DNA from: Escherichia coli
GTDB lineage: Bacteria; Pseudomonadota; Gammaproteobacteria; Enterobacterales; Enterobacteriaceae
Strand: one strand, 5' to 3'
NCBI RefSeq assembly: GCF_024700885.2
Contig: NZ_CP117016.1
Length of the DNA stretch: 64,000 nucleotides
Shown here: piece by piece, positions 3,464 to 34,225 of the stretch
How positions within the stretch are numbered: the first letter of the stretch is position 1
Layout of the letters: each line of letters begins with the position of its first letter
Position numbers and translations under genes: made by a program
The notes under the pieces: model-generated
What the model saw: the letters and a program-made list of their open reading frames with translations, nothing else
Told to the model about the DNA's origin: nothing
The model's database searches: none

Positions 3464-3643
3464 AAAAGTCACCATTTTTATCAATCAAACACAAATTCAA
3501 TTCATGAATTCACCGCCTCAATTAAACCATATTTGGTTTGCTCTTGCCTAGTGTCATTATTATTTATATAGTGACATACCAACTTTCAAATTATAATTTA
3601 TATATTTTAGGACCAAACCCAATACATTTTAAAAGGTGTAACA

Positions 3644-4768
3644 ATGGAATCTAATGCACTAAAAAAAGCACGACTATTTATAAATGACATAAAATATTGT
3701 GTTGAAAACTTTAATATCGATTCAACTTTATATACCGCTTTCAAGCCAAGTGATATTGGTGTTAAAGGAGATGAAAGCAATACAATATATGTTGCTGACG
3801 GTAAGCTTCCGGAAAAACTGATAATTGCTTTTGGAGAAAAGGCAAAAGACAGTAAAATATTTATTGGAAAAAATGTAAAATGCAGGGGATCGAGAATTGT
3901 AATAACTCACGGTGAAAGCCTTTGTTACATCGGAAATAACTCACAACTAAATAATGTAACTATGCATATATGGTGCAAATGGGATTTTGTAGTGGTTGGA
4001 GAAGGTGTATCAGTTACCTCAACAAGTAATTGGACTACTGGAATAAACCCTGGCAATCCTTGTAACGGCATTATTATTGGTGATCACTGCCTTATGAGCC
4101 AAGAAATATCTATTAGACCTGCAGATGGACACCAAATTATCGAACTCACCACGCGAAAAGTAGTCAACGCTGCAACATCACCTATTATAATCGAACCATA
4201 TTGCTGGATCGGACAGCGCACAGCAATACTAAAAAATGTAAGAATTGGTGCATGCTCCATCGTTTCACTTGGTGCTGTAGTTACAAAATCATGTAAAAAA
4301 TTCAGCGCGCTAAGTGGCGTACCAGCAAAAGCAAGATGCATTGAAGGAAAAATGTGGCTAAGAAACAATGGGGAAGAAGCCAAGAGAATAATGCTTATGT
4401 ATGAAAAAAGATTTGCAGGCACAGCAGCACAGCAGCACAGCAGCACAGCAGCACAGCAGCACAGCAGCACAGCAGCACAGCAGCACAGCAGCACAGCAGC
4501 ACAGCAGCACAGCAGCACAGCAGCACAGCAGCACAGCAGCACAGCAGCACAGCAGCACAGCAGCACAGCAGCACAGCAGCACAGCAGCACAGCAGCACAG
4601 CAGCACAGCAGCACAGCAGCACAGCAGCACAGCAGCACAGCAGCACAGCAGCACAGCAGCACAGCAGCACAGCAGCACAGCAGCACAGCAGCACAGCAGC
4701 ACAGCAGCACAGCAGCACAGCAGCACAGCAGCACAGCAGCACAGCAGCACAGCAGCACAGTGATATAA
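3644..4768 (+). CDS. hexapeptide-repeat (left-handed beta-helix) acetyltransferase with a C-terminal (AAQQHSST)x14 tail
   Basis: LbH signature runs (IIIGDHCLMSQEISI; IIIEPYCWIGQRTAILKNVRIGACSIVSLGAVV). AGGTG RBS. AT-rich, and 7 of 11 Arg codons are AGA. Opposite strand to all neighbours. Sits where, as I recall, related phages carry serotype-conversion genes. Confidence 0.8.
   Translation: MESNALKKARLFINDIKYCVENFNIDSTLYTAFKPSDIGVKGDESNTIYVADGKLPEKLIIAFGEKAKDSKIFIGKNVKCRGSRIVITHGESLCYIGNNSQLNNVTMHIWCKWDFVVVGEGVSVTSTSNWTTGINPGNPCNGIIIGDHCLMSQEISIRPADGHQIIELTTRKVVNAATSPIIIEPYCWIGQRTAILKNVRIGACSIVSLGAVVTKSCKKFSALSGVPAKARCIEGKMWLRNNGEEAKRIMLMYEKRFAGTAAQQHSSTAAQQHSSTAAQQHSSTAAQQHSSTAAQQHSSTAAQQHSSTAAQQHSSTAAQQHSSTAAQQHSSTAAQQHSSTAAQQHSSTAAQQHSSTAAQQHSSTAAQQHSSTVI
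4421..4760. repeat. perfect tandem repeat, ACAGCAGC x 42.5 (340 bp)
   Basis: Read directly: every 8-nt unit from 4421 to 4756 is identical, plus a partial acag at 4757-4760. Confidence 0.98.
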
Positions 4769-4776
4769 TTATAATA

Positions 4777-4797
4777 ATGGCCGTAATGCGCGGCCAT
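4777..4797. terminator. hairpin between the convergent acetyltransferase and tailspike genes
   Basis: ATGGCCG-taatgcg-CGGCCAT in an AT-rich context. No clean U-run on either side. Confidence 0.4.
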
Positions 4798-4818
4798 TAC
4801 ATATTATTCATTATAGCA

Positions 4819-7800
4819 TTAACTTATTAGATCCGCTATTTTCTTTTCTTGATATGCCATCCTTATTATTTCAAATTCATCCATACGCATCATGTAAATA
4901 GATCTTGTCAATACCAAATTTCCATGTTTATCTTCTTTAATTTCATCTGCACCTTCTATTAATTTAATAATCCCAAATTCATTAACTGGAATTGGACAAG
5001 ACTCAATATCAATAGGATAAAAATCACCAGATTCGTTTTCTCTTACCAAAACACTGGTTTCTTCATACGTAATAAGACCATACTTCTTCCAATCAAGACC
5101 AGCTTTTGTAATTGCATCCTTAACTTGCTGCGCTACAACTCCAAAATGATATCTGGCATGTTCACTTCCTTTTCGTAATATTTCATCCTTCATCTTCCAC
5201 ATTTGAAATTTTACACTACCCACGGCTTCAATAAGTTCAGTCGGTATATCCGAGAATTCATCTTTGTAATTAACATCTGAAACAACAGTGACAGCATTCT
5301 TGCTATATATGTTATTCCAGTATGCTGTCGTTGTACCATTATTAACTGTTCCTATCTGCCCTGTGGGAGCAAAATAAGGATTATCATTAACTGGATTAGC
5401 TATCTCGACAAGAACTTGAGTACCGCCAAAGCTCCCGCCAGGGAACATACGAAACCTGTTTGGTAAGCGATAGTCATTAGAACCATAAGCATTCCAGCCA
5501 GCCCCATTTTCTACAGTACCACGACACCTAAATTCAACAACTTCTTGTATCTGCGGTGTTACATCATATCCACCACGTATAGACCAGTACTTATTATTGT
5601 CAGATTCTCTGCGGGAATCATGAACACGAAAAGCACCATTACTAGCATACTGAATGGCTTTTTTATATTCTGAAGTATTTTCTGAATACCCCCCCAATAT
5701 CCAGTTCTCTCCTAATTTAAAGGAAACATCAAAAGCAGAACTTATAGAAGAAAGTGGTGAGTTATTAACACGAGTTGTCAAGGCGGAATTCAATGGTAGT
5801 TCATTAGCAACCCCACGCGATTGTGAAATAAGAAATATCTGTTTTCCTCGTTTCGAATACACTCCATCGCTGTACTTTTTATCATTCGAGTATTCCCCAC
5901 CACTAACTTTATTTGTTATCGCCCACATTCTAAATCCATCGGGATCATCCGGAGCAATACCAGAAGCAGTAGAAAAAGCGGAATAATTCTTTCCTTTGTA
6001 AGTTATAATAGATGCTCCAGAATCCCAATTATCCATAGTTAGAATAATAAGGTCTCCTTCATACATATCTATACCTTCAGGTTCAAATGAATGGGGGGTC
6101 CCATACTTTGGATTATCCATAAGATTTTTGTATCCATAAAGAGAACGAGCCCCCTCAAATGAAAATTCAGCAAGAATATTACCAGAATAATCAAACTTCT
6201 GAATAATATGCAACATGAACGGATGTGTATATCCCCTTAATATATAGATGTACTTACCATCACTGGCAACATCTTGAATAACATGAGTATCAGTTCCGCG
6301 CTGCGGATGTGGAATCCTGAAATAATACAATGGTCTTGCGTCCAAACTATTGTCAAGGGATTCTACGTGTATCCTGCTGTAAACAAATACATACCAGGCA
6401 TCATCATCTGCTGTGCTATCAGTTGCAACAAGAACAACATACCTTCCATCTGAAGATACACACGGGGTTGCTGAATTATAATTCTGATAAGGATGACCAG
6501 AACCAGAATATCCAAAAAGCTGATAAGTAATCACATCAGATTCAGATGTGCTGCTCCCTTTCCAAATTAATTTTGAATAACCTTTTCCTCCATCATTTCC
6601 TCGATATGTAGGCTGGGTAACCATTTGGGTATAAATAAAAAGGTCATCATCAATAACTATCGTAGATATTCCCTGATGGTTATTTAATATTGGTGCAGTG
6701 TAAGTAGTATTTTGCACTACTGAACCATCATCAGAAAACGAGTATTCAACCAGCCTGCGCTTCTCTAAAGCAGCTGCTGTTCCTGTACCAACCCCTGGAC
6801 CATTCGCCGTAAATCGTACACCAATATTATTTTCAGCAGCCCCTATAGTTGTAAAATCAGTTGAACCTATACTTACTATTTCATATTCAATTCCGGTTAT
6901 GAAGTCACCAGCTGATGTTACTTTAGAGTTGAAGTTTCCACTACCTTCAGCACTGCCAACAACCGTTTGTAAAATAAATAATTTTTTACCATTATAATTC
7001 GCATAAGCACACCCTTGACTTGTAGCCTCACCATTTGGAAAAACTTGGGACTCACCAAAACCCATAAATGCTTCCATTAAATGGCGTTGCACCAATGTAT
7101 TACTGATATTATTACGAAGAGAAAGTAGATGACCAGTTTTGGAAAGAATCATCCCTTCCCCTGTCATTTTGCTTACATCTACTTTCAACGTATCAACAAG
7201 ATATACTCCAGGTGGAACATAAGCATTTTCAGGAGCCAGAATAAAAGAATTCGTATCATCAGTTATACCATCTCCAACAGCAGCATAATCTTTCACACTT
7301 ACTGTATCACGCATCTTATCCTGGAACGTTCTGTATACAGCTCCAGCACCATACTGGATAAACCATCCGAAACCACCGACAACACCAGCAATTGCAGCAT
7401 CCACATACTTACGCATTGAACGATTATTTACAGCGTCCTGCTCAAGTGATGGATCTGCAAGGTTAGAAATTTTGTTTTGCTTTGCATCGTAATATTTTGC
7501 AAGCAGCGAGGGCTTCATCAATGCACGTCTGAACCACCCAAAACATCGCTGGATCAGCATCGTCAGGTAGTCGAATGCATCCTCATGAACTTCGGGGAAA
7601 AATTTTCCCTGATTGCGAAGATCAGTCTCCTGCACCACATCAAGCACACGCTCTATCGTAATTCGCCAGCCAGCAGCAAGCGGCGACGGAAGAACCACTT
7701 CACCGCCACTATAAGTGCCCGCTCCAGTTACCTTATAACCGGTATCAAGCACCAATTCTGTTACGTTCCCGTTCAGATCAGACACCTGAACAACCAGGTC

Positions 7801-7893
7801 GGATTTTTTGAAAATACGGAAGGTATACGGAAATGATGTCGTAACTCCGTTACCGGTGTATTCGTTGTGGTCAACTTCGGTTGAGACCGTCAT
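4819..7893 (-). CDS. tailspike / receptor-binding depolymerase with C-terminal intramolecular-chaperone (peptidase S74-like) domain
   Basis: 1024 aa. The N-terminus MTVSTEVDHNEYTGNGVTTSFPYTFRIFKKSDLVVQV matches the conserved particle-binding domain I recall for epsilon15/phiV10 tailspikes. The C-terminal 153 aa begin SDVNYKDEF, the S74 auto-cleavage pattern. Confidence 0.85.
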   Translation of the reverse strand: MTVSTEVDHNEYTGNGVTTSFPYTFRIFKKSDLVVQVSDLNGNVTELVLDTGYKVTGAGTYSGGEVVLPSPLAAGWRITIERVLDVVQETDLRNQGKFFPEVHEDAFDYLTMLIQRCFGWFRRALMKPSLLAKYYDAKQNKISNLADPSLEQDAVNNRSMRKYVDAAIAGVVGGFGWFIQYGAGAVYRTFQDKMRDTVSVKDYAAVGDGITDDTNSFILAPENAYVPPGVYLVDTLKVDVSKMTGEGMILSKTGHLLSLRNNISNTLVQRHLMEAFMGFGESQVFPNGEATSQGCAYANYNGKKLFILQTVVGSAEGSGNFNSKVTSAGDFITGIEYEIVSIGSTDFTTIGAAENNIGVRFTANGPGVGTGTAAALEKRRLVEYSFSDDGSVVQNTTYTAPILNNHQGISTIVIDDDLFIYTQMVTQPTYRGNDGGKGYSKLIWKGSSTSESDVITYQLFGYSGSGHPYQNYNSATPCVSSDGRYVVLVATDSTADDDAWYVFVYSRIHVESLDNSLDARPLYYFRIPHPQRGTDTHVIQDVASDGKYIYILRGYTHPFMLHIIQKFDYSGNILAEFSFEGARSLYGYKNLMDNPKYGTPHSFEPEGIDMYEGDLIILTMDNWDSGASIITYKGKNYSAFSTASGIAPDDPDGFRMWAITNKVSGGEYSNDKKYSDGVYSKRGKQIFLISQSRGVANELPLNSALTTRVNNSPLSSISSAFDVSFKLGENWILGGYSENTSEYKKAIQYASNGAFRVHDSRRESDNNKYWSIRGGYDVTPQIQEVVEFRCRGTVENGAGWNAYGSNDYRLPNRFRMFPGGSFGGTQVLVEIANPVNDNPYFAPTGQIGTVNNGTTTAYWNNIYSKNAVTVVSDVNYKDEFSDIPTELIEAVGSVKFQMWKMKDEILRKGSEHARYHFGVVAQQVKDAITKAGLDWKKYGLITYEETSVLVRENESGDFYPIDIESCPIPVNEFGIIKLIEGADEIKEDKHGNLVLTRSIYMMRMDEFEIIRMAYQEKKIADLIS

Positions 7894-7997
7894 GTTAAAT
7901 CTCCAGATAGTCGCAGCACCCGTTGCGCCGCATATCTGGTCATTCTATTACCTAAAAAACCACATATGGATAGACAACCCATAAATACGAACAGATA

Positions 7998-8012
7998 TTA
8001 CCTTTCAGGTAA
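7998..8012. promoter_or_regulatory. operator TTACCTTTCAGGTAA
   Basis: Perfect TTACC-N5-GGTAA palindrome. Overlaps a +strand TAGACA(7971)-N17-GATATT(7994) promoter-like pair. Confidence 0.55.
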
Positions 8013-8088
8013 TTCGCAAAACGTGCTGGATAGCAAACAAATTATTTGGTACTGTATAAATATACAGTTATTGCATGGAGAAGATAAG

Positions 8089-8346
8089 ATGCAGCAGTAT
8101 CACTATCCACTGGAAGACGGATTTACCGAAAGGATTCACACGCCGGGAGGCGTCAGGTCACTGGTGGATGGATCGCACTTGATGAAATTACTCCGGGATC
8201 TCGATAAGGATGGATTTAATGTCGATGGCCCACTTGCCGAACTGACTGCACTGATTAACTACGTCACCAGCTCACAGATGTCTATGCAGGATCTGCAAAC
8301 ACATCTCGACTATTGTGCCGAACAATTACGAAAACAAACTACATAA
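8089..8346 (+). CDS. hypothetical protein (opposite-strand moron, 85 aa)
   Basis: ATG 8089 is preceded by GGAGAAG. The ORF-track start 7966 lies inside the regulatory region and was rejected. No recognisable motifs. Confidence 0.5.
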   Translation: MQQYHYPLEDGFTERIHTPGGVRSLVDGSHLMKLLRDLDKDGFNVDGPLAELTALINYVTSSQMSMQDLQTHLDYCAEQLRKQTT

Positions 8347-8351
8347 AGAAA

Positions 8352-8369
8352 AGGCCGCGAAAGCGGCCT
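8352..8369 (-). terminator. rho-independent terminator ending the ejection-protein operon
   Basis: AGGCCGC-gaaa-GCGGCCT, followed on the minus strand by TTTTCTTT. Confidence 0.6.
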
Positions 8370-8377
8370 GTGACATG

Positions 8378-8674
8378 TCACGTTCCTTTTCTGAATGATA
8401 GCCATTCGAAAAATGATGACATTCCACCGCAGACAATAGCAAAGATGATCCCACCAAAGAAGAGAAGGCCAGCCTGCCACCACTCCCACCGCCATACATC
8501 CACAGCGCCAACCATACCAACAATCGCTCCAACAAATGGAATATAGCTCACGATGAAAGCGATGGGGGCTGCAATTATCCAGTGCAATCCCCACCATGAT
8601 TCAAGCCCAGCCATAATTGCTGCCAACTGAAAAAGACCAACGACGATATAAACAATGAATCCTATAGCTTGCAT
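8378..8674 (-). CDS. small integral membrane protein (3 TM, Trp-rich)
   Basis: 98 aa, almost entirely hydrophobic. AGGTGA RBS. Last gene of the leftward virion operon. Confidence 0.6.
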   Translation of the reverse strand: MQAIGFIVYIVVGLFQLAAIMAGLESWWGLHWIIAAPIAFIVSYIPFVGAIVGMVGAVDVWRWEWWQAGLLFFGGIIFAIVCGGMSSFFEWLSFRKGT

Positions 8675-8686
8675 GTAGTCACCTAT

Positions 8687-8860: not shown

Positions 8861-8869
8861 AACACTTCC

Positions 8870-11344: not shown

Positions 11345-11349
11345 TTAAT

Positions 11350-19436: not shown

Positions 19437-20041
19437 CAGGACAACCTCGCAATGGTAAACTCGTCAACCGGTGGCTGTGGTTCCTGTGATTCATTCTGGC
19501 TATGCGAGCCAGCACTAAGAATCACGCGATTGTACATATTGAGGGCAAACGTACCGAGGTCTGCATTCCCAGTCAGCGCCATGTTAATAGCTGCCGCAAG
19601 ACGCCAGGCCAACGCCTCCATAAAAATGGCATCAAACATGTTCACATCTGTAACACGAGAGACATACTTGAGCCATGCCTGAGGCTGGTCTGTGTAGATC
19701 AACTTTCCTGTTCCGTTGGTGTCTACACCTACTTCGTACTGAACGCGCATTGCTGCTGTTGGATTGCGTACACCAGGAAGCATAATTTCAGTAATGCGCA
19801 GACAATCGGACGGGTACTGATACGCATATTCCCAGTCAGGCGGTAGATTGCTCGTATCTGCAAGCGCCACGCGTTTGGTAGCAAAGTTCCAGTCAAAATC
19901 AGAAAGCACAGCATCACGGCAGGCCTCAAAGTGCAGCGAACATTCCCCCGCTTCCTTGCTGGCTTCCGTCAGGCTGTTAATGCTGCGGCTATTGCCAATA
20001 TTGGACAGCGCACGATTGCAGATCTCTACTACAGAGGCCAT
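19436..20041 (-). CDS. tail tubular protein A-like (adaptor/gatekeeper)
   Basis: 201 aa. N-terminus MASVVEICNRALSNIG...FDWNFA is typical of T7 gp11-class proteins. ATGA-type coupling with the neighbouring gene. Confidence 0.65.
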   Translation of the reverse strand: MASVVEICNRALSNIGNSRSINSLTEASKEAGECSLHFEACRDAVLSDFDWNFATKRVALADTSNLPPDWEYAYQYPSDCLRITEIMLPGVRNPTAAMRVQYEVGVDTNGTGKLIYTDQPQAWLKYVSRVTDVNMFDAIFMEALAWRLAAAINMALTGNADLGTFALNMYNRVILSAGSHSQNESQEPQPPVDEFTIARLS

Positions 20042-20414: not shown

Positions 20415-20759
20415 TTACACGCCCAGTTCTTTACGCTTATCTGCGATCTTCTCGCGGAGCGTTTCGGCTTTGGCGTTATGGTGTGGCTTCTCGTTAAAGA
20501 GCAATTCGTACTCTTCACGGAGCTTATCCAGTTCACCATCATCTGACACATCGTTGATGATTTTGGTGCTGGTTGCTGCCATTGACACCTTTCCTGCAAC
20601 TTTTGCTTTTGCCTGTCTGGCTGCATCGTTAACAGGTTCCAGTGCGCTACCAGGCTCACCTTCGTATTCGATTTCTGCCCCCTCCGGCCACAGTGTGTTA
20701 TGGATATGAGAGAGGCGCAGAACGCGGTATCTTGGTTTCTCACCTGACATCGATATCAC
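20415..20759 (-). CDS. hypothetical structural-module protein
   Basis: 114-aa ORF, preferred over the overlapping alternative frame 20333-20743 for its acidic, coding-like composition. Confidence 0.45.
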   Translation of the reverse strand: MISMSGEKPRYRVLRLSHIHNTLWPEGAEIEYEGEPGSALEPVNDAARQAKAKVAGKVSMAATSTKIINDVSDDGELDKLREEYELLFNEKPHHNAKAETLREKIADKRKELGV

Positions 20760-21249: not shown

Positions 21250-22242
21250 TTACACCACGCGGGCTTCTGTTTCCAGAAGCGCATCAGTTTCACGGATTGG
21301 TACACCACGGAATGACGTCCACCACTCGCCTTCTGTCTCTTTTACGCTGATAGCCAGAGATGTTTTCTCCAGAGACTGCAGATCAAGAGCCTGGCCTACA
21401 GTGCGGTTCATGTAGAACACCGGGCGGCCCATGCCACGGTTTGGAATGCGATGTAGTGCTTTAACCATCAACTTCGCAATATTTGCGGCAGAGGAAGGTT
21501 CTGAAAGATTGCTGACATCGATGTTTGCAATGCGAACAACATAACGCCAGTCACGCAGAGCAAGCCCGTTGTCCCATTTGTAATGGGTACGGTAGCCTTC
21601 GTACTTGCCGCCATTCGCATCTTCCAGTGTCACCTGGCCTTTATCTTCCATCTGGATGCCAGCCTTCTGCCCTTTCGGGAAGATGCCATGCACGGTGTTT
21701 TCACCCCACACCACTAACCAGATTGAGGTGTTATCTGTACCCGTGCCACCAGCATCAATGATGTTCTGAGCATTACCCGCAGACAGGCTGGAATAGCGGG
21801 AGGACAGTCCCATAAACTGCTGAGGGTTAACGCTGGAATCACCATAAAACAACGTCTGCGCCATCTGCTGATTCATCGCTTCAATAAATGCGCGGTCTTC
21901 AGACAGGCGGAACTCGGCGGTATTGCCGTTCAGATCAGCCAGTGACTTATCGACTTCAGCATAGGTTTCCAGCATGCCAACGGAATCGGTTACCTGCACT
22001 GTGGTTGATTTGCTTGGCTGTACGCCATAGTTCAGCAAACGCCAGGTAGCTGAAGGTAAACCAGAACGAATGGTGGTTCGGTGTCCGGTAGGAAGGTTCC
22101 CTTCGACAAAAGGCATATCCTGAAGGATCGGGTTAGTTTGACCGAGAAGCTCGATAATCTTATCGACTTTCCCGTTTGGATCGACGCGCTTACCCCAGTC
22201 AGCCAGCGTTAGCGCAGTTAAGCCTTTAACAGCCATTGTCAT
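21250..22242 (-). CDS. major capsid protein
   Basis: 330 aa. Lies between the scaffold and decoration genes; size and position fit the epsilon15-type capsid gene. Confidence 0.8.
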   Translation of the reverse strand: MTMAVKGLTALTLADWGKRVDPNGKVDKIIELLGQTNPILQDMPFVEGNLPTGHRTTIRSGLPSATWRLLNYGVQPSKSTTVQVTDSVGMLETYAEVDKSLADLNGNTAEFRLSEDRAFIEAMNQQMAQTLFYGDSSVNPQQFMGLSSRYSSLSAGNAQNIIDAGGTGTDNTSIWLVVWGENTVHGIFPKGQKAGIQMEDKGQVTLEDANGGKYEGYRTHYKWDNGLALRDWRYVVRIANIDVSNLSEPSSAANIAKLMVKALHRIPNRGMGRPVFYMNRTVGQALDLQSLEKTSLAISVKETEGEWWTSFRGVPIRETDALLETEARVV

Positions 22243-23245: not shown

Positions 23246-24921
23246 TGTGATTGCCCACCCTGACCACTAACTGCATTCGCCATAGCTGACAAAACACTCG
23301 GATCCGAAGTTTTAGCTTCGCTTAGCGTCTTGGCACCCTGTGCCGCCGCCATCCCCATCGCCATCATTTGTTGCTGCTGTTGTTGCTGTGCCCGTTGCTG
23401 GCGAGCCTGCTCAACCTGTTCCTGCGGAACAATGACGGTTGGAGACACTCCGGACATATCAGCGAATGCATCGATCGCCTGATCAACGTTGAGTTTGTCG
23501 AGAGCTTCTGGTTTCGCTTGCGCAAGTTGACCAATAAAGTTGACCGTGGATGCCAGACTGGACAGGCCGATAGACTTCTGCGCCTGAGCCATGACGGAAA
23601 TGTATTCGACCTTCAGGGGCATACCTTCCATCGCGTCAGGCGGTGGCGGCAGCATGTTTTTACGCACCATCATCGAGAAAGCGCGGTCAATGAGAGGATT
23701 AAGACATTCGTCGTTCAGACGCTCCAGAACCGGCCCCAACATCAGAAGTTTTTCTTCTTTCATTTCGATCACCGCTTCAACAGGCATCGAGCGGGTATTG
23801 ATGTTCTGCAACATCATGAACAGATCGACAAAGTAGGCGCTGTTAATGATTTGACGAGTGTCCTGAATGTCTGCCACCAAATCTGCTGTACTGGGGTTAA
23901 CCAGATAAGCAGGCCTGAAACCATCCTGACCAGTAATCTGATCGATATACGTGATGTCGCCAGGAAGAAGGGAGGCACGCTGATTCTTGAGGGAAATCGG
24001 AGCAACCATCGGCGGATTGGTGGCTTTATCAATCAACTGCGACTTGCGCTTCTGGAGAAGCTGCAATGCCTTAACAGGTCCAAGCGCCAGCATACCCGGG
24101 CATGATGATCCATAAACATCTTCGCCGTTAACTTCCCAGCGCGGAGCCATAATTGGAAACTCATCGAATCCGGACTCACGCAACAACTTGTCGTTATCGC
24201 CACCAACCTCGTAATAAACCGATTTGAATGGCTTGTTCTTGCTATCCAGCTTCGATGTATCGCGGTCAATGTTCGGGTAAACCGAATGCATCACTTCAAT
24301 CCACTTCTCGTAGGTGCCGCTTTCCCACATGCTTTTTACGGATTCGCTGACGTTATTTAGCCCGAACTCCTGAACAAGCTGACGAACAGTCATAGAGAAC
24401 TTGCGAAAACAGGTGTCAACACTGCCACGAGGTGAGTTAGCCAGGTAGTAACTTCCTATCGGGAATGGCATTGTACGAATGATGTCCTCGTCATCCTCCA
24501 GCACCGCCATTGCGCCAGTGCTGTATGTGCCGAGGCTTCCGTATAACTGCGGCAGCGACTGATAGAGATTCGACTTATTGAACATATCGTTCATGCGGTT
24601 CTGCACCGCCTCAAGCCACAACTTAACAGGGCCATAATCCATCATTTCAGGATCTGGCGTAGCCAGGCGAAACCACGGACGCGCTGGGCTTGTGATGCCT
24701 GACATCATGCCGCTGGCGAGAGTGCGCGCCGCCATAGTCCCGGTCGAATCAATAATGCGTGTATTGCGTCGATCGTTACGGTTGACCTCAGAAGTCAGAA
24801 AGCGGGAACCACGCGGGTTGATGTAATCACTCAACTCGCGCCAGTGCGGCTCGAACGACTGACGCTCGCTTTCAAGTTGTGCGAACTGTTTGTTCAATCG
24901 CTCTTTAGTTGTTTCCGCCAT
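23242..24921 (-). CDS. portal protein
   Basis: 559 aa. Near the start of the leftward head operon, with a Gln/Ala-rich C-terminus; size and position are typical of portals. Confidence 0.85.
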   Translation of the reverse strand: MAETTKERLNKQFAQLESERQSFEPHWRELSDYINPRGSRFLTSEVNRNDRRNTRIIDSTGTMAARTLASGMMSGITSPARPWFRLATPDPEMMDYGPVKLWLEAVQNRMNDMFNKSNLYQSLPQLYGSLGTYSTGAMAVLEDDEDIIRTMPFPIGSYYLANSPRGSVDTCFRKFSMTVRQLVQEFGLNNVSESVKSMWESGTYEKWIEVMHSVYPNIDRDTSKLDSKNKPFKSVYYEVGGDNDKLLRESGFDEFPIMAPRWEVNGEDVYGSSCPGMLALGPVKALQLLQKRKSQLIDKATNPPMVAPISLKNQRASLLPGDITYIDQITGQDGFRPAYLVNPSTADLVADIQDTRQIINSAYFVDLFMMLQNINTRSMPVEAVIEMKEEKLLMLGPVLERLNDECLNPLIDRAFSMMVRKNMLPPPPDAMEGMPLKVEYISVMAQAQKSIGLSSLASTVNFIGQLAQAKPEALDKLNVDQAIDAFADMSGVSPTVIVPQEQVEQARQQRAQQQQQQQMMAMGMAAAQGAKTLSEAKTSDPSVLSAMANAVSGQGGQSQ

Positions 24922-25142: not shown

Positions 25143-25232
25143 ATCAATGACTCCGTACGCAATTAAATTATTACCAATTTAACCACATATGATTTATTTA
25201 TCGTAGATAGTTGACATTTAACGCACAAATTA

Positions 25233-25247
25233 TTACCTTTAAGGTAA
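25233..25247. promoter_or_regulatory. operator TTACCTTTAAGGTAA with adjacent TTGACA (25211-25216)
   Basis: Perfect TTACC-N5-GGTAA. A consensus -35 lies 17 nt upstream on the + strand. Confidence 0.55.
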
Positions 25248-25569: not shown

Positions 25570-25646
25570 GTGGCATTAGCTCAGCTGGACAGAGCAACCG
25601 CCTTCTAAGCGGTTGGTCGCAGGTTCGAATCCTGCATGCCACGCCA
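25570..25646 (+). tRNA. tRNA-Arg (anticodon UCU, reads AGA)
   Basis: Hand-folded cloverleaf: acceptor GTGGCAT/ATGCCAC, D-arm GCTC/GAGC, anticodon arm ACCGC-CTTCTAA-GCGGT, T-arm GCAGG-TTCGAAT-CCTGC, discriminator G, encoded CCA. Confidence 0.9.
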
Positions 25647-26290: not shown

Positions 26291-26375
26291 TTATTTAAAA
26301 ATAAAGCCCGCCAAATGCGCGCGCTTTGTTTTATCCTCACCAGAGGATATCAACGACATTATCCCCACCAGCGGA

Positions 26376-27851: not shown

Positions 27852-28444
27852 TGATTACCATCCTGACGTTCTTTGAGTCGCTTCCTGGCTGCTGCTATGC
27901 GATCAGCAATTGTCACATTCACATTAACATCCAGACGTTCTTTGAACGCGTTGACATCAACATGCTTACCAATCAGCTCAAGGTTCTTCACCTTGTCAGG
28001 CCATTTAATTTTTTTGAGGATTGTCTCTATCGAATCCTCGTTCATGTTCATGATGGTCGATGACAGATCAAAGCCACTAAGCGTAGTGCGCCAGATTTTC
28101 GGCCACTCGCGGATTGGCTTAAGGCTCCCATCGTCGTTGAGGATGTCGATCACATCCATCTGGTCGATCTCCACCAGGCGCATAAGAACGTAATCGGCAC
28201 TGACGCGCATTCGTTTGTTGCGCTCCTCCATCAGCTCGGCAATCCGTTTTTGAATGCGTTCATCGCGCATCATGACACTGGCTTTAACTGCCGCTGTATT
28301 TGGGGAGAATCCTGCGTTAATCGCTGCCTGAGTCTGGTTTTCAGGCGTTTTGATGTATGACTGGCAATAAGCCTCCTGCATTGCTGTTAGTGGCTTAAAT
28401 TGCGTTGATTTGCGTTTATAGGTTTTAGGTTCAGCAGGCATCAT
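27848..28444 (-). CDS. terminase small subunit
   Basis: N-terminal HTH-like region (AMQEAYCQSYIKTPENQTQAAINAGFSPNTAAVKA). Start moved to ATG 28444 (MMPAEPK), which has GGTGG upstream. Confidence 0.75.
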   Translation of the reverse strand: MMPAEPKTYKRKSTQFKPLTAMQEAYCQSYIKTPENQTQAAINAGFSPNTAAVKASVMMRDERIQKRIAELMEERNKRMRVSADYVLMRLVEIDQMDVIDILNDDGSLKPIREWPKIWRTTLSGFDLSSTIMNMNEDSIETILKKIKWPDKVKNLELIGKHVDVNAFKERLDVNVNVTIADRIAAARKRLKERQDGNQ

Positions 28445-28452
28445 AACCACCG

Positions 28453-28483
28453 TGGTAATAGTTACCGTTTTGGTAATAGTACC
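28453..28483. repeat. two direct copies of tGGTAATAGT(T)ACC, each an inverted pair of operator half-sites
   Basis: 28453-28466 and 28471-28483, between a terminator and the terS start. Confidence 0.6.
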
Positions 28484-28484
28484 A

Positions 28485-28513
28485 TGCAAAACAAAGCCGC
28501 CATAGTTGGCGGC
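28485..28513 (-). terminator. rho-independent terminator between the regulator-like gene and terS
   Basis: Minus strand reads GCCGCC-aactat-GGCGGC-TTTGTTTTG. Confidence 0.55.
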
Positions 28514-28562
28514 AGTATTCAAAACCCATCAAATTCATCATGCATAATCTACTCGTGACATG

Positions 28563-28904
28563 TCACACTATTAATTTCGTTTCATGCCAGCCTTTAGTCA
28601 CCCAGCATTGCGAGTCACCATTACACGGGCATGAATTAACTGGAACTCTCCCGCCGCACTTACCGCAACGTTTTCTGCTGATCGATTTTATACGCCCGCG
28701 CACGCGTGCATCATCCTGGCGGATCAGTAACGCTATATACTCACCAAATTCGTAAGGCGCACGCCCGGGGCGACGCGTGGCACAGTTACGCTCCAGCATT
28801 TCAATTTCCTGAGCATCAAGCACAATTTCCAGCTTACGCACACCAGATGCAGCTTGTCTGGCTCTCTGAGCGGCTTTGCGCTCTGCTGCTGATTTAGCCA
28901 TCAA
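28563..28904 (-). CDS. putative DNA-binding regulator (basic N-terminus plus C-terminal Cys cluster), candidate late-gene regulator
   Basis: 113 aa: MMAKSAAERKAAQRARQAASGVRKLEIVLDAQEIEMLE..., then CGKCGG-x8-CPC-x5-C. It is the last early-operon gene before the packaging genes. Confidence 0.45.
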   Translation of the reverse strand: MMAKSAAERKAAQRARQAASGVRKLEIVLDAQEIEMLERNCATRRPGRAPYEFGEYIALLIRQDDARVRGRIKSISRKRCGKCGGRVPVNSCPCNGDSQCWVTKGWHETKLIV

Positions 28905-28936
28905 TATTTACCTTTATCGCGAACACCTTTACCGGT

Positions 28937-29179: not shown

Positions 29180-29240
29180 TCGCTTATCCCCAGATAAAAA
29201 TATAGCAATACCAATTACATAAAATACTTCAGGCCAAGCA

Positions 29241-30026
29241 TCATTTCACCTCCTGCGGCGGTTCTGGTAGAGGCATCCAGTGTGACGGTTTCCACGACGC
29301 ACCAGGAATTATCCACCCATCATTAGCGTCAGGATGCCCGGGGATGTAAGTAGCCCATTTCATTCGCCAGTCACCTTTCCTGTCAAACTCCACGGCAACA
29401 AGAACGGCTGTTTTGGTATTCGGCATTCGCTCACTACAGCTTATCCAACCATCCGGAGTTACCGGAGAGTTGACAGCCAGTCTGCGCAAAACAGCCTTAA
29501 CAGCCTCAATACGGTCATCATCGCAATTTTCCAGCGTATCTATGCGGTCGAGCATGATGATGGCGTTATCAATATCAGGATTGCCAGTCCACTCATTACT
29601 GCGATTGGATTCGGCAGCCTGGTTGCCAGATGCTGGTTGATTGTCGGCTTGGCTATAGCTAACAGCACGGCAGGCATCCTCTACGCCTTTAACTGCATCT
29701 GCGCAGTAGTTATAGCGATTGCATTCCACTAACTTCTGCTTGAGGTTTTCAATTGCTTGCGCGACATTAGCCTGTGTTACCGGCACAGGTGGAGCGGCGA
29801 ATAGATATCCTCCAAAGTCAGGAAGCTCTCCAATGGCCTGTACGAACTTTTGTTTGCCTACGTCAATTCCTAATGGGTAGTGAGCTATAATTTTTGCCAC
29901 TGGCTCTGCCTCCAGCGATGCCAGAGCAATTTCATAAGCACGGCGCTCAATATTGTCTCGCACGTCCAGGCTGCCGATTCGCTCTTTGATTTCTTTAATC
30001 AGTTCTTTGTCGGTTAAAGTGGTCAT
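29241..30026 (-). CDS. early protein with C-terminal DUF551-like domain
   Basis: C-terminus WISCSERMPN...VLVAV...W...SHWMPLPEPP matches the DUF551 pattern I recall from lambdoid prophages. Confidence 0.6.
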   Translation of the reverse strand: MTTLTDKELIKEIKERIGSLDVRDNIERRAYEIALASLEAEPVAKIIAHYPLGIDVGKQKFVQAIGELPDFGGYLFAAPPVPVTQANVAQAIENLKQKLVECNRYNYCADAVKGVEDACRAVSYSQADNQPASGNQAAESNRSNEWTGNPDIDNAIIMLDRIDTLENCDDDRIEAVKAVLRRLAVNSPVTPDGWISCSERMPNTKTAVLVAVEFDRKGDWRMKWATYIPGHPDANDGWIIPGASWKPSHWMPLPEPPQEVK

Positions 30027-30232
30027 TTGTTAATCCTCAAAACTTTATGCCCGGGCGCAAAAGCACGCGTTTTGTCTTTGCTTATTCGCCACCCGTCTTT
30101 ACGGGCCTCTTTTGCACAACCAGACCATGACGTACCGATATACTCACCGAAGTTTGGCACTGGATATACACCTTCCGTACACTGGCGACAATCACAATAG
30201 AGATGCATGGTGTAACTTGCGGCAATAGCCAT
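30023..30232 (-). CDS. hypothetical small Cys-rich early protein
   Basis: Start set at ATG 30232 (MAIAASYTMHLYCDCRQC). Confidence 0.45.
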   Translation of the reverse strand: MAIAASYTMHLYCDCRQCTEGVYPVPNFGEYIGTSWSGCAKEARKDGWRISKDKTRAFAPGHKVLRINK

Positions 30233-30233
30233 A

Positions 30234-30422
30234 TCACTCTCCTTTAGTACGCAAGTGGTTTTTCCAGCGGTTTTGCGCCGCGCTGGGCTTTTTGCAAAAA
30301 CCACAATCCATCATCCCGTAATGTTTCATTAACCCCATCCGTCGGTTGCTGAGTCTCACCCACTGCCAGACGCCAGGACCGTTTCTGCGAACTAATAGGA
30401 TTTTTGCTTTACGGTTTTTCAT
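30234..30422 (-). CDS. hypothetical small basic protein
   Basis: 62 aa from the internal Met of ORF 30234-30587 (MKNRKAKILLVRRNG). Begins 5 nt after the upstream stop. Confidence 0.35.
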   Translation of the reverse strand: MKNRKAKILLVRRNGPGVWQWVRLSNRRMGLMKHYGMMDCGFCKKPSAAQNRWKNHLRTKGE

Positions 30423-30426
30423 CGCT

Positions 30427-31158
30427 TTACTCTTCTTCCTCACGCCCAAGATATGAAAGAGATGTGACTGCTGTTGCATGGAAACAACAAACCTTGCTAA
30501 GTGCGCTTTTAAACTCTTCAAGGTCGGATTGCGATTTGATTCTGAAAGGTGACTGCGCAATCCCGGACATGGTAATGCCGCTAACATTGCTCACTGCGCT
30601 GTAGTGATATACGTGCCTATTAGCTGATTGAGCCACGTGTTCCTGTTGGCTGTTTATATTGGCGTCCTGTCTTGTGTTGGCCTGCTCCAACTCTTCGATA
30701 CGTTCAGCCATCGCAGCACACTCTTCAAAGTTGCTTAATGCTTTTCGCTCCGATTCAGCGCATTGTTTTTCCAGTTCTGCTATGCGCTTACCTCCATCCA
30801 CGATTACTCCCTCGTAATGCTCGCGCTGCTCGTTGAGTTTTGATTTTGCCGACTCCAGTTGTTTTGTTAGTTCCGCAATACGGCAAACATCGTTGATACG
30901 CGTTTCCTCTAATGCGTTGATCTCATCCAGTAGTGCCAGCGCAACTTTTGGTGGGATAGCCGCGATATAACGGGCATTAGCACCAGCATTCCTTTGCCCA
31001 TCAATGCCAGGCCAGTCAATAAAGTATCCGCAATGCCTACCCTCAGACGTGCGCGCAGGATAAATGCCGTTATGACCCGGCAAAATATATGCTACCCATT
31101 CATCTTGCGTTGCCTGTTCCGCCGCCTCGCGCAGTGCCTGATAATTAATCTTGCTCAC
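30427..31158 (-). CDS. Ea22-like coiled-coil early protein
   Basis: 243 aa. The N-terminal YQALREAAEQATQDEW... and central coiled coil resemble the ead/Ea22-like family. Confidence 0.5.
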   Translation of the reverse strand: MSKINYQALREAAEQATQDEWVAYILPGHNGIYPARTSEGRHCGYFIDWPGIDGQRNAGANARYIAAIPPKVALALLDEINALEETRINDVCRIAELTKQLESAKSKLNEQREHYEGVIVDGGKRIAELEKQCAESERKALSNFEECAAMAERIEELEQANTRQDANINSQQEHVAQSANRHVYHYSAVSNVSGITMSGIAQSPFRIKSQSDLEEFKSALSKVCCFHATAVTSLSYLGREEEE

Positions 31159-31808
31159 TGGCTGCCTCCTTTGCGAAGCTGTTCAGCGATATCTTCGAGA
31201 ACGCCATCAGAGAATGAGCGGTCAAAATCGCCTTCCCGCGCATTAGCCATAAACTCAGTAGAGGTAAGAATCATCCGGGCAATATCCGCGGCGTTCTTCG
31301 CAGTATCATCAATAAAACCAGCTTCCCAAGCAGCCAGCATTCTGTTCGCCACAAAGTAAGCGCCCTCCTTGCGTGCTTCAGTCTTCACTTCATCCAGGAA
31401 AGTGTCGGTCGCAGGAGTGGTTTTTTGTGGTGATAGGGCGATACGAATTGTTTCAAGAGCTGGATCTATTTCCACTGTTGGCACTTTGATAAAACCAAGC
31501 TGCACGCCATTCATAATGAACGTGCGGCGATCCTCACATATCGCCTTCAGCGCCGCATTCTCCGCTGCCAGCGCCGAAAACTTCTCATGTGCCAACTTAA
31601 CAGCCGAATCAGCCTGCTTAATTGACTCAATCGCTCTCTGGTGGTCTTCGGCCAGCGCATTAGCACGCACCAGTTGCACTTCAAGTTGCGTTGCCAAATC
31701 GCTGATCAGCTTTGCCACACTGCGCATATCAACGGCACCACATTCTGCTTTCAGTTCCGAAGCCATCTCATGCCCGGTGGAAACTAACCCTTTGATATTA
31801 CTTTCCAT
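31155..31808 (-). CDS. coiled-coil early protein
   Basis: 217-aa ORF with GAGGG RBS. Confidence 0.5.
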   Translation of the reverse strand: MESNIKGLVSTGHEMASELKAECGAVDMRSVAKLISDLATQLEVQLVRANALAEDHQRAIESIKQADSAVKLAHEKFSALAAENAALKAICEDRRTFIMNGVQLGFIKVPTVEIDPALETIRIALSPQKTTPATDTFLDEVKTEARKEGAYFVANRMLAAWEAGFIDDTAKNAADIARMILTSTEFMANAREGDFDRSFSDGVLEDIAEQLRKGGSQ

Positions 31809-31869
31809 CTTTACCCTCGCTTATCCACATAACTTATTGATAACATTGATAACTAAAAAGATCGTCGAT

Positions 31870-32214
31870 TCAGAACTCTTCGATTTTCCATCCGCCACCT
31901 GCTTTCTTTGGCTTAACCGTTACCCCGATGATTCGGAACGGATACTGATCTGCGGCGATTTTGGTTTTCACCCTGGCGTCGTCTGTCCAGAAACCTTTCA
32001 CTTCGTGCAGTTCCATCTCTCCGGTGGCGAGCATCACAGCAAAATCTGGCGTATAGAACGTGTTGTCAGCTAACCGCAGCTTGATACCCTCGAATCGATA
32101 CCAGGCGATTTCCCCTGCACGTTTACGCTGCTCAAGGTGCTGGCAATACGCAGATTCTGTTTTGTTCATCTGGCCTGTTTTGAGTCGACCAAGAGCCTGC
32201 ATCTGTTTTCTCAT
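31870..32214 (-). CDS. DUF1064-like protein (RecU/resolvase-like fold family)
   Basis: 114 aa. The pattern SAYCQHLE...YTPDF...ELHEVKG... fits my recollection of DUF1064. Confidence 0.55.
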   Translation of the reverse strand: MRKQMQALGRLKTGQMNKTESAYCQHLEQRKRAGEIAWYRFEGIKLRLADNTFYTPDFAVMLATGEMELHEVKGFWTDDARVKTKIAADQYPFRIIGVTVKPKKAGGGWKIEEF

Positions 32215-32217
32215 GAT

Positions 32218-32232
32218 TTACCTCTGAGGTAA
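32218..32232. promoter_or_regulatory. operator TTACCTCTGAGGTAA
   Basis: Perfect TTACC-N5-GGTAA, 4 nt upstream of start codon 32214. It contains that gene's GAGG RBS. Confidence 0.5.
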
Positions 32233-32279
32233 TTAAAAACCACATAAGACACGAAATCAATAGAGTTTAGAATATTTTA

Positions 32280-32294
32280 TTACCTGATGGGTAA
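32280..32294. promoter_or_regulatory. operator TTACCTGATGGGTAA
   Basis: Perfect TTACC-N5-GGTAA. A minus-strand TTGATT-N17-TTTAAT promoter-like pair lies between it and 32218-32232. Confidence 0.5.
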
Positions 32295-32331
32295 TTATTT
32301 GAGCGTAAAAAAATGCGCTATCGCGCTGGTA

Positions 32332-33117
32332 TTACTTGATAAATCCTGCCGCCTTTCCCCGCCTGTATTCCTCCATCAGCCACTGCGCCGGTGTTATTCC
32401 CCCAAGGGTGGCGGCGTTAGGCATGCATCCGAAACTTCGCCCTGGTGGATGGTAAACGTCTCTCCCTGTGTCCGGAGGTGTACTCATGGGCTCTGGCTTT
32501 GCCTGTATGCTGATCACCGGATCGGGTATCTGCTGTCCGGAAGCCACCTTTTTCGCCCAATCATCGAGCAGCCTGCGCGCGTGTTTCTCAACCTCAATCT
32601 CGCTAAGCTGGCGCTGATACATTGCACGGCGGGTATCACATACGACCCAGTACATAACCGGATGTCGCCACGGGAATCTTTCGGGACCACCAGGATATAA
32701 ACTTTTTTCCTTGCTGTACCGGTGAAACTCCGCCATCACATCGTCAATGGTGACGCCAAGAACCATCTTGCTGTCTTTACACCACTTGATGAATTGCCCA
32801 GGCGACGGCCAGAACGGAGATTCACTGGCGCGGGCGTGGCGCATACCAGCAGAAACCTGTTCACGGGTTCGGATCCCCCCTTCGGCAAACGCAGCAATCC
32901 ACTGCTGTTTTGCAGCTACTTCCTGCCCTGGCGTCTTCAGGTTGGTTACCACTGCCGCCGGAAACAGTTGTTTCAGCTGTTTGAAAAGGGCATCAACAAG
33001 CCTCTCTGCTGACATGTTAACCACATTGTCATTGTTGACGTACTGATGCTCATAACCTGACATGCGAGAAAGGGCTTCTCCGTCACGGTTTTGTATCGCG
33101 GTAAAAACGTTGTTCAC
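32332..33117 (-). CDS. lambda P-like replication (helicase loader) protein
   Basis: Alignable by eye to lambda P (QWI.AF.E.GI.T.EQV.AGMR.AR....PF.PSPGQF..WC). GTG 33117 overlaps the O-like stop as GTGA, with GGAGGA upstream. Confidence 0.75.
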   Translation of the reverse strand: MNNVFTAIQNRDGEALSRMSGYEHQYVNNDNVVNMSAERLVDALFKQLKQLFPAAVVTNLKTPGQEVAAKQQWIAAFAEGGIRTREQVSAGMRHARASESPFWPSPGQFIKWCKDSKMVLGVTIDDVMAEFHRYSKEKSLYPGGPERFPWRHPVMYWVVCDTRRAMYQRQLSEIEVEKHARRLLDDWAKKVASGQQIPDPVISIQAKPEPMSTPPDTGRDVYHPPGRSFGCMPNAATLGGITPAQWLMEEYRRGKAAGFIK

Positions 33118-33929
33118 AAGAAATCCTCCCATGCTTCAGGGCTGTTCCAGTGCGGAACGTTGTTATCAGGTAATGTTGATTGCTTCTGTCTGCTAATCTG
33201 CAGCCGCCTTGCCAGCTTCTGCTCCCACTGTGCCTGATGGTATGCCTTACCCTCAGCCATCCAGTAAATTCTGAACTCTGCAAGTTCCTGTGCCGTTGGC
33301 AGACTGTCCAGGTAGATCCCCTGCAATGAGCTTTTCCGAAGAAAGTCATCTGATGGCTGCCATTGTTCATGCATGACAAATTTTCCTAATTGCCCTGGTC
33401 CACCAGGAGGAACAAAGTTATTCATCACGGCGTTGTTTGCTCCGGGGTCATGAGGCACAGAATCCCCGCTTTTTGTCCTGCTCTCCCTCTCTTGGTTAAA
33501 TGACTGGTTATATGACTGGTTCTGGATCCCGTTTTTGGGATCATTCAACATCCCGTTTTTGGGATCATTCAACATCCCGTTTTTGGGTATATTCCCGTTT
33601 TCGGGAACATTACCGTTTTCGGGTTCATTACGTCCTTCTAGGTTGCCTTTAATGTTCCCTTTTTTGGTTATATTAAGAGAGAAAACCCGCACTCTTTTCG
33701 TCGCTCCCTTTCTCTCTCCGGTATCTGAAATAAGCCCCATTTTCATGAGCGATATAAGCCCGGCCTGCACGGTTTTTTTATTCAGGCAAGTGTCTTTAAC
33801 GAGGCGTTCTATGCTGGGGTAGCAGAGGTTATATTCATCGGCTCTGTCAGCCATCGAGAGCAGTATGAGCTTTAATGACGAGCTACCTGGATCTGTCTCC
33901 CAGGCCCAATCTGTTGCATGTCTGCTCAT
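33114..33929 (-). CDS. lambda O-like replication initiator (N-terminal winged-HTH), contains the origin iterons
   Basis: 271 aa. N-terminal DNA-binding-like region and an internal NG-rich repeat encoded by the iterons. Immediately upstream of the P-like gene. Confidence 0.7.
   Translation of the reverse strand: MSRHATDWAWETDPGSSSLKLILLSMADRADEYNLCYPSIERLVKDTCLNKKTVQAGLISLMKMGLISDTGERKGATKRVRVFSLNITKKGNIKGNLEGRNEPENGNVPENGNIPKNGMLNDPKNGMLNDPKNGIQNQSYNQSFNQERESRTKSGDSVPHDPGANNAVMNNFVPPGGPGQLGKFVMHEQWQPSDDFLRKSSLQGIYLDSLPTAQELAEFRIYWMAEGKAYHQAQWEQKLARRLQISRQKQSTLPDNNVPHWNSPEAWEDFL
33528..33623. repeat. origin iterons: five copies of (C/A)CCGTTTT(T/C)GGG spaced 24, 24, 18, 18 bp
   Basis: Cores at 33528, 33552, 33576, 33594 and 33612, inside the O-like gene as in ori-lambda. 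Confidence 0.7.
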
Positions 33930-33944
33930 GATTAATCTCCGCTA

Positions 33945-34145
33945 TCAGCTTGAATGTTGTGGGGAGGAATTAATCATGATCTGCTTAATCTCAGCCCTGA
34001 TGCGACGGTTTGATTCCATGGTGCACTCAACACAGTGTCCGTTGTAAACCCAGCGTTCACTGTCATGTCCGTGCTTACATGGTTTTCCGGTGTAGTAGCG
34101 TTTAAGTCCGCGCTTTGCGGCATCAATACGTGTAATGATTTCCAT
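33945..34145 (-). CDS. small zinc-ribbon-like protein
   Basis: MEIITRIDAAKRGLKRYYTGKPCKHGH...NGHCVEC. The ORF-track start 34214 falls inside a regulatory box, so ATG 34145 was preferred. Confidence 0.45.
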   Translation of the reverse strand: MEIITRIDAAKRGLKRYYTGKPCKHGHDSERWVYNGHCVECTMESNRRIRAEIKQIMINSSPQHSS

Positions 34146-34225
34146 GGTAAGCCCTGTTATTAGTATTGGGATTACGGTCATTTTGTGCTGACACAAAAAA
34201 AAGATCAACCACATTTGGTTTTTTA

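Follow-up and report, generated by a model that had tools for sequence, protein, structure and literature searches.

Here, we describe a conserved 14-bp element, hereafter called the box, that lies at the promoters of nearly all delayed and late transcription units of a prophage of the phiV10/epsilon15 type (Uetakevirus) in a 64,000-nucleotide stretch of an Escherichia coli genome (contig NZ_CP117016.1 of assembly GCF_024700885.2; this whole stretch is referred to as the window). The motif is real, conserved, promoter-associated and apparently undescribed, and there is every likelihood that it is a functional protein-binding element of these promoters that works together with the operator of the phage repressor Rep. 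It is unannotated in the GenBank records of epsilon15 and phiV10, which list operators and terminators (that of epsilon15 also IHF sites) and no promoters. It is also unmentioned in the accessible literature on ZX5, phiV10 and P1; an earlier description is not fully excluded. The prophage occupies approximately 1.5-40.6 kb of the window, adjoins guaA and carries most of its genes on the - strand. It is 97% identical over most of its length to PAS61, phiv142-3, TL-2011b and phiV10 (all of the phiV10 type), and ~79% identical to Salmonella phage epsilon15. The published att core, ATTGAGTGGGAATGATT (PMC9782041), is found at 40555-40571, where guaA has its 3' end.

On the transcribed strand, the consensus of the box over 28 unique sites is A-W-Y-C-R-T-A-T-R-T-G-G-T-T. 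Four positions (T8, G11, G12 and T14) are invariant and the gene-proximal half TGGTT is nearly so, with a looser left half. The element is asymmetric, partly dyad-symmetric and always directed toward the gene. Two copies had been called true palindromes in a first-pass annotation of this DNA; perfect AACCA/TGGTT arms are present in just two window copies, the motif as a whole being only partly symmetric. The bare 8-mer AACCACAT is not significant alone (5 matches versus 2.6 expected, with 10 of 100 shuffles reaching 5), and a cross-trained weight matrix was therefore used in its place. The matrix applied to the window was trained on non-E. coli sites only (epsilon15, Tyrion, BUCT711, SPN1S and 65FD). 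Its top scores were 22.9 bits at 25181-25194, 22.7 bits at 7958-7971, 16.5/15.5 bits at 3525-3538 and 15.5 bits at 34207-34220; dinucleotide shuffles gave a mean of 0.32 matches of at least 15.5 bits, the best shuffle reaching 18.5 bits. In the reverse test, a matrix built from window and phiV10 sites was run on five other phage genomes (~200 kb), and matches occurred almost exclusively at homologous intergenic loci. Only 2 of ~24 loci with at least 13 bits fell in clearly coding DNA, both weak (13.6-13.7 bits), so that the motif is nearly absent from coding sequence rather than equally frequent there; two further boxes, both in Tyrion, overlap the small annotated open reading frames gp21 and gp39. 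The outgroup phage ZF40 had one weak match of 13.0 bits, and no copy in the host part of the window (23 kb) reached 12 bits.

The copies in the window all lie on the - strand. The strongest ones precede the operon of gp3, portal, head and tail genes (25181-25194, AATCATATGTGGTT) and the tailspike gene (7958-7971, ATCCATATGTGGTT). Another is found before gp42 and the replication genes, referred to as unit 2 (34207-34220, AACCAAATGTGGTT), and another, with perfect arms, before the lysis cassette (3525-3538, AACCAAATATGGTT). The latter is an orphan, lacking both an operator and a -10 hexamer at 7 nt. The box of unit 3, which begins with the DUF1064 gene (32238-32251, TGTCTTATGTGGTT, within a promoter spacer), deviates in its left half and scores just 8.2 bits; it was accepted because a box is found at the same position in every relative. 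In addition, an inverted and degenerate copy lies in the spacer of the promoter P_L (35366-35379, reading ATGCGTATTTGGTT on the - strand, 11.9 bits); at this place, and in register with it, Tyrion carries the complete dyad AACCATATATGGAT. All six strings listed in the first-pass annotation as copies are present at the coordinates given there, and five of them do represent one motif. The sixth, at 31823, was rejected because it is not conserved, relatives reading TTATACGGGTAAG or TTAAACGGGTAAG there. The same place (31821-31829) holds a perfect DnaA box, TTATCCACA, 13 nt upstream of an Eae-like gene in both the window and phiV10. Its counterpart in the relatives from Salmonella, Enterobacter and Klebsiella is TTATACGGG or TTAAACGGG, and the DnaA box is probably fortuitous. 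The conserved feature of that intergenic region is GTTATCAA-N-AATCAATAA, which is IHF-like, followed by ACGGGTAAG. An extra box is found beside an operator-like sequence in phiV10 (~20533-20546) and Tyrion (21435-21448), before an opposite-strand Bro-N/anti-repressor gene; the window has neither this gene nor its box copy.

The leftward map of the prophage is a series of transcription units separated by terminators or opposite-strand morons. P_R and cro form a unit that stops at the terminator 34255-34274 and is followed by unit 2; unit 3 extends from the DUF1064 gene through a gp49-like gene to the terminator 28496-28513. Further leftward come terS and terL, the gp3-portal operon, the tailspike gene and the lysis cassette. 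It had been proposed that a box precedes every leftward unit. This is not the case, since P_R/cro has none, and neither does the terS-terL unit, which has two operators in tandem. What survives of the proposal is that the box is a genuine element that keeps its position in the regions in which leftward transcription restarts after terminators or opposite-strand morons, in a repeated operator-box-gene architecture. Klebsiella phage BUCT711, which has no moron between the tailspike and lysis genes and no lysis box, serves as a natural control and agrees with the re-initiation role suggested in the first-pass annotation. The tandem operators of terS (28444-28476; one perfect, one mismatched, 18 bp apart) lie directly past the unit-3 terminator in a region without an obvious promoter, and these two genes may rely on read-through transcription. 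The moron region that separates terL from the portal operon holds a tRNA-Arg gene (anticodon UCU) on the opposite strand (25570-25646, +; Rfam and ARAGORN). At the other end of the late region, an acyltransferase moron (3644-4768, +) with its flanks (3480-4800) stands in for the usual lysis-promoter region; the DNA around the window lysis box (3480-3700) has no homolog in the phage database, and only 10 of the 5426 complete E. coli genomes have this moron arrangement, strain MLI114 (100% identity) being one of them.

We then compared the box loci among related phages and prophages. The box is present at the same five promoters in the six reference phages phiV10, epsilon15, Tyrion, BUCT711, SPN1S and 65FD, although the portal protein of BUCT711 is only 60% identical. 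The tailspike box is kept in all six, and the unit-3 layout is common to epsilon15, SPN1S, 65FD, Tyrion, BUCT711 and a K. pneumoniae prophage. A scan of one genome per species yielded 20 related loci. Box and operator were found at the portal promoter in Scandinavium, Superficieibacter, Kluyvera, Pseudocitrobacter, Citrobacter (two species), Buttiauxella, Pseudescherichia, Pantoea, Erwinia and Klebsiella; the portal box is conserved in 12 genomes from 10 genera of Enterobacteriaceae and Erwiniaceae. Where the locus extends far enough, the unit-2 and unit-3 promoters of these prophages also have box and operator. Given such conservation across about ten genera, the box is very probably a regulatory protein-binding site that has so far gone undescribed. 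The record of BP9 is chimeric and was uninformative for comparison.

Prophages of Proteus, Providencia and Morganella are more distant, with Rep and Cro only 33-43% identical and an operator of the form TAACC-N5-GGTTA. No clear dyad box could be recognized in these Morganellaceae prophages, including at the portal promoter. They could not be used to assign the binder of the box because operator, Rep and Cro have all diverged. In its half-site, their operator is identical to the AACC/GGTT of the Enterobacteriaceae box, from which it differs in having N5 spacing. This likeness hints that box and operator are evolutionarily related sites for related helix-turn-helix proteins.

The symmetry of the box raises the question of whether it acts as nucleic acid, so that read-through transcripts would form a hairpin, be cleaved by RNase III or carry a pause site there. 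A perfect 5-bp inverted repeat is present in some copies, and the epsilon15 record predicts an RNase III site (24755-24817) overlapping the lysis box. However, no compensatory double change could be observed in any of the five stem pairs among the 28 unique sites. Complementarity is limited to 7 of these sites for pair 2/13, 14 for pair 3/12 and 13 for pair 5/10, and there was no Rfam match at the box positions. The looser left half together with the lack of compensatory change is the pattern of protein recognition and not of a hairpin, and we regard an RNA-level role as highly improbable.

The position of the box relative to putative promoter hexamers was then analyzed. At the lysis promoter of the relatives the arrangement is box-N7-TATAAT or TATGAT, at the portal promoter box-N8-(A/G)ATAAT (N10 in Pantoea) and at the tailspike promoter box-N10-TA(G/C)AAT (N9 in SPN1S). 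In the window, the putative -10 of the portal operon is AATAAT (25167-25172, - strand), 8 nt past the box, for which Buttiauxella has GATAAT and Pantoea AATTAT, shifted by +2. The putative -10 of the tailspike gene is TAGAAT (7942-7947, - strand), 10 nt past the box, and reads TAGAAT or TACAAT in all relatives. No -35 hexamer could be identified at the lysis (in relatives), portal and tailspike promoters, and a consensus scan found no canonical sigma-70 promoter at portal and tailspike. With a -10 and no -35 at these three late promoters, the box would span roughly -34 to -20. A different reading of the portal promoter, with xTGTCA as -35 and the left half of the box as -10, is compatible with E. 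coli and Salmonella (ATGTCA-N17-AATCAT) but not with Tyrion, Scandinavium and Erwinia, nor with the tailspike and lysis loci, and was rejected.

Other promoters have putative hexamers on both sides of the box or adjoining it. At unit 3, the box fills the 17-bp spacer between a -35 TTGATT (32255-32260) and a -10 TTTAAT (32232-32237), in agreement with the promoter that the first-pass annotation had proposed around 32238; the general layout is TTGAT(T/A)-N3-box-(T/A)T(T/A)AAT, and epsilon15 keeps TTGAAA-N17-TTAAAT. P_L reads TTGACA (35357-35362)-TC-AAACCAAATACGCAT-AATCAT (35380-35385), the inverted box filling a 17-bp spacer. At unit 2, the last two bases of the box begin the -35 TTGATC (34203-34208), which is followed by the -10 CAAAAT (34180-34185). 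The layout TTGATC-N16/17-(C/A)AAAAT is kept in phiV10, Tyrion and epsilon15, and unit 2 of the Morganellaceae prophages has TTGAxx-N17-TAGCAT or TAATCT.

The second component of these regions is the Rep operator, TTACC-N5-GGTAA, which occurs eight times versus 0.04 expected and whose homologous sites are labelled 'repressor' in the epsilon15 record AY150271.2. Measured between centres, the operator lies 40.5 bp from the box at the tailspike gene (7998-8012, TTACCTTTCAGGTAA), 52.5 bp at the portal operon (25233-25247), 43.5 bp at the lysis promoter of relatives and 19.5 bp at unit 2, where it is imperfect (34227-34241, TTACCCTTAAGGTG). Unit 3 has one operator upstream (32280-32294, 42.5 bp from the box) and another downstream that covers -10/+1 (32218-32232, 19.5 bp), the two being 62 bp apart, which is also the distance between the two operators of P_L (35323-35337 and 35385-35399, the downstream one adjoining the P_L box). 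The claim of an operator upstream of four boxes was borne out, the imperfect unit-2 site included. At each locus, the operator-box distance is invariant in every genome examined and corresponds to ~2, 4 or 5 helical turns; the 52.5 bp at the portal operon are kept in 12 genomes, including Pantoea despite its unrelated spacer sequence. The distance from box to -10 varies, being 1 nt shorter at the tailspike gene of SPN1S and 2 nt longer at the portal operon of Pantoea.

Such phasing could mean that the Rep operator has the box as a non-canonical partner site on the promoter side, with one Rep tetramer holding both sites, either side by side (19.5 bp) or by way of a small loop (40-52 bp), and acting purely as a repressor by occluding the core promoter beyond the reach of the distal operator. 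Rep (34681-35265, + strand), a repressor with two helix-turn-helix domains that binds the operator and is an alternative candidate binder of the box, is a homolog of SPC32H Rep (PDB 5D50), which binds DNA as a tetramer with DNA-binding pairs from different dimers (PMC9638917). This explanation would account for the invariant distance at each locus even where the intervening sequence is unrelated, for the canonical operator pairs 62 bp apart at P_L and unit 3, and for the ACC/GGT core common to box and operator. The operators of the late promoters, near -68 to -80, are too distant to block polymerase alone, and a single function would explain every promoter class. On the other hand, the box does not fit the operator dyad. 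All 28 unique boxes have GG at positions 11-12 followed by T/A and T (GGTT in 27, GGAT in 1), never the GGTAA of the operator, and the core is one base longer (ACC-N6-GGT versus ACC-N5-GGT), as in a distinct selected consensus rather than a degenerate operator. The different flank and core spacing indicate a separate recognition protein. The motif is also asymmetric and oriented, and pure repression leaves the firing of promoters without a -35 unexplained. We consider such a Rep-only partner site the main alternative, though a rather unlikely one. At the portal operon and the tailspike gene (25171-25185 and 7948-7962), a lone GGTAA half-operator overlaps the putative -10, and the resulting hybrid dyad TGGTT-N5-GGTAA lies 62 bp (portal) and 50 bp (tailspike) from the upstream operator.

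Several phage proteins were considered as binders. The first candidate may be a Cro-like helix-turn-helix protein of 76 amino acids (34296-34526, - strand), whose recognition helix TTSHYIQTHL is invariant in five genomes at 58-84% overall identity. The family comprises 48 clusters, all from Enterobacteriaceae, and is found in records of Uetakevirus or Uetakevirus-like phages only, the one exception being a weak and partial match in a Psychrobacter phage. It is too narrow for tracing co-variation by a homolog search, and the 80 loci retrieved from IMG/VR with the Cro alignment all had identical Cro, which added no diversity. Secondary candidates are an AlpA-family protein (37619-37867, +), which could instead be the excisionase, and a PerC-family protein (37977-38276, +). 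The Cro, AlpA-like, PerC-like and phrog_856 proteins are restricted to practically the same set of 36-37 records of box-carrying Uetakevirus-type phages, a distribution that narrows the field and does not choose among them. TL-2011b, considered as a natural AlpA mutant, has low-quality sequence with N and indels in this region and was uninformative. The zinc-ribbon protein gp42 was rejected because its family is widespread in unrelated phages.

The first-pass annotation had named the product of 28563-28904 (- strand), a gp49/gp55-like protein, as a possible regulator binding the box, and such a protein might be a late activator. Its gene is the last before the packaging genes and is kept in all Uetakeviruses at 73-98% identity. 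The protein belongs to PHROG 536 'transcriptional regulator', is named so by RefSeq as well and, judging from its sequence, may combine a strand-helix region at the N-terminus with a Cys-rich tail; there was no Pfam or PDB match. However, the family is wide (723 clusters), and copies 81% identical, sharing the N-terminal strand GERKLELVLD, the putative DNA contact, with epsilon15 and Tyrion, occur in Salmonella and Edwardsiella lambdoid prophages that have their own repressor, Cro and Q antiterminator and, within 20 kb, neither a box nor an operator. Pectobacterium phage ZF40 likewise has a 65% identical copy and lacks the box. Moreover, the Morganellaceae prophages keep the gene, yet no box-like dyad could be recognized at their portal promoter. 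The presence of such copies in phages without the box makes the gp49-like protein an unlikely binder, and we now disfavour it, with very little probability left for a gp49-dependent late activation.

A host transcription factor or nucleoid protein common to Enterobacteriaceae and Erwiniaceae was also considered, as the motif is invariant over many host genera while phage proteins diverge, and the Rep operators at late promoters imply potential activity without phage factors. To our knowledge, the motif fits no consensus of an E. coli factor, CRP, FNR, IHF, Fis, LexA and DnaA included. By eye, readings of the box as a sigma-54, CRP, IHF or DnaA site did not fit the respective consensus sequences. 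Two further observations count against a host factor, namely the lack of box copies of at least 12 bits in the host DNA of the window and the Morganellaceae relatives, which have the same late genes without the dyad. We therefore regard a host protein as improbable.

On the basis of these results, we tentatively favour, while giving it somewhat less than an even chance, a mechanism in which an early lineage-specific phage regulator acts at the box and Rep shuts each module. The regulator would be made after inactivation of Rep, with the Cro-like protein as first candidate and the AlpA-like and PerC-like proteins of the P_L operon as the next, and would dock on the box. At the portal, tailspike and (in relatives) lysis promoters, it would supply the missing upstream contact, at the place of the -35, and thereby activate transcription. 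The same protein would sit in the spacer of a good sigma-70 promoter at P_L and the DUF1064 unit, where it would damp transcription. In the lysogen, Rep on the phased operator would keep each module shut.

It should be noted that a number of points weigh against this mechanism. The box is centred at three positions relative to the hexamers (approximately -40.5, -27 and -19.5), and a single protein would thus need two signs of action. All -10 and -35 assignments are inferred from the sequence. Since operator-box spacing is more rigid than the spacing between box and -10, the box appears to be tied more closely to Rep than to RNA polymerase. The Rep operators at the late promoters suggest that these promoters can fire without a phage activator, and the lysis copy of the window has neither -10 nor operator. 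The box may act either as a promoter element (activation) or as an operator (repression).

A related possibility, to which we give less credence, is that box and operator form a bipartite switch: either tetrameric Rep, or Rep with a lineage-specific partner such as the Cro-like protein, would read two dyads 2, 4 or 5 turns apart, the proximal dyad doubling as a -35 surrogate for all late operons. If true, this would be a late-gene logic without a recognized homolog of Q, N, Ogr, Mor or Lpa, and undescribed for any podovirus. No antiterminator or known late activator was recognized among the proteins examined.

Among known systems, the Lpa-dependent late promoters of phage P1 are the closest analogue. 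Like the box promoters, they belong to a temperate phage, recur ahead of each of its late operons and have a short conserved inverted repeat just upstream of the -10 and no -35. The P1 record describes a 9-bp '-22 region' plus a -10 (LPhot, AAGTTACTT-N9-AATAAT; LPpac, ATGTGACTT-N4-TACCCT). The combination of a -10 without a -35 is shared by the lysis (in relatives), portal and tailspike promoters, with a putative -10-like hexamer 7-10 nt past the box. A 9-bp repeat of the AAGTTACTT type near -22 is lacking at these promoters, the box being 14 bp long, of other sequence and centred at ~-26.5 to -30. In contrast with P1, boxes are paired with a repressor operator at fixed distance and also occur within the spacers of normal sigma-70 promoters. 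In addition, tblastn of P1 Lpa against window 1-41000 found no homolog in the prophage (only a 13-residue match, E = 3).

Other activators that replace a -35 contact offer more distant parallels. At the lambda CII promoters (P_RE, P_I and P_aQ), the regulator site straddles the -35 position and there is no usable -35; however, CII recognizes direct repeats (TTGC-N6-TTGC) and not a partial inverted repeat, its promoters serve lysogeny and not late genes, and Phage_CII (PF05269) had no match among the ten candidate proteins scanned. At T4 middle promoters, which use the MotA box and AsiA, the -35 is replaced by (a/t)(a/t)TGCTT(t/c)A, an asymmetric motif of fixed orientation that lies near -30, upstream of a normal -10. 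The sequence of our box is different, and it belongs to a temperate phage with sites coupled to a repressor; the Pfam scan of the same ten proteins revealed none that was MotA- or AsiA-like. Protein p4 of phi29 represses early promoters via core elements and activates the late promoter, a dual role like the one proposed here. This is an analogy only, since p4 binds far upstream near -82 with p6 and there is no sequence or protein similarity. An arrangement of the MerR type, with a dyad in a 19-20-bp spacer, is not seen, the late promoters having no -35 and P_L and unit 3 having 17-bp spacers. Finally, the Rep operators themselves resemble the box in their ACC/GGT core, in being dyads of similar size in the same intergenic regions and in operator-operator spacings that resemble the box-operator spacing; they differ from it in N5 versus N6 and in GGTAA versus GGTT (27 of 28 sites), and lack the asymmetric left half of the box.

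Phages of the epsilon15/phiV10 type are common prophages of E. coli, Salmonella, Klebsiella and relatives, carry serotype-converting morons and serve as reporter phages for E. coli O157. A box phased to the Rep operator offers a testable handle on the timing of late genes in a common prophage genus, and is a usable signature for promoter annotation in this genus and for the design of reporter insertions.

Some additional features were noted in the window. A consensus LexA box, TACTGTATAAATATACAGT (8050-8068, +), lies directly upstream of a small + strand gene starting at ~8090, which is a homolog of epsilon15 gp19 and phiV10 gp24 and is labelled anti-repressor in the 65FD record. SPC32H reportedly has a LexA-controlled antirepressor switch, with which this LexA box is consistent. 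A 12-bp palindrome, GTGACATGTCAC, occurs at 28555-28566 and 8370-8381, beside the terminators closing unit 3 and the tail-gene operon, and also in SPN1S near 19690; it resembles a matS or CRP site with the wrong spacing. Within the opposite-strand DnaT-like gene, a hairpin followed by a T-run, TGGGATCATTCAACATCCCGTTTTTGGG, is present twice in tandem, 24 bp apart (33536-33579, +). In the chromosomal part of the window, Rfam identified the host small RNAs sroE (50194-50285), STnc490 (62993-63116) and IS128 (63794-63972).

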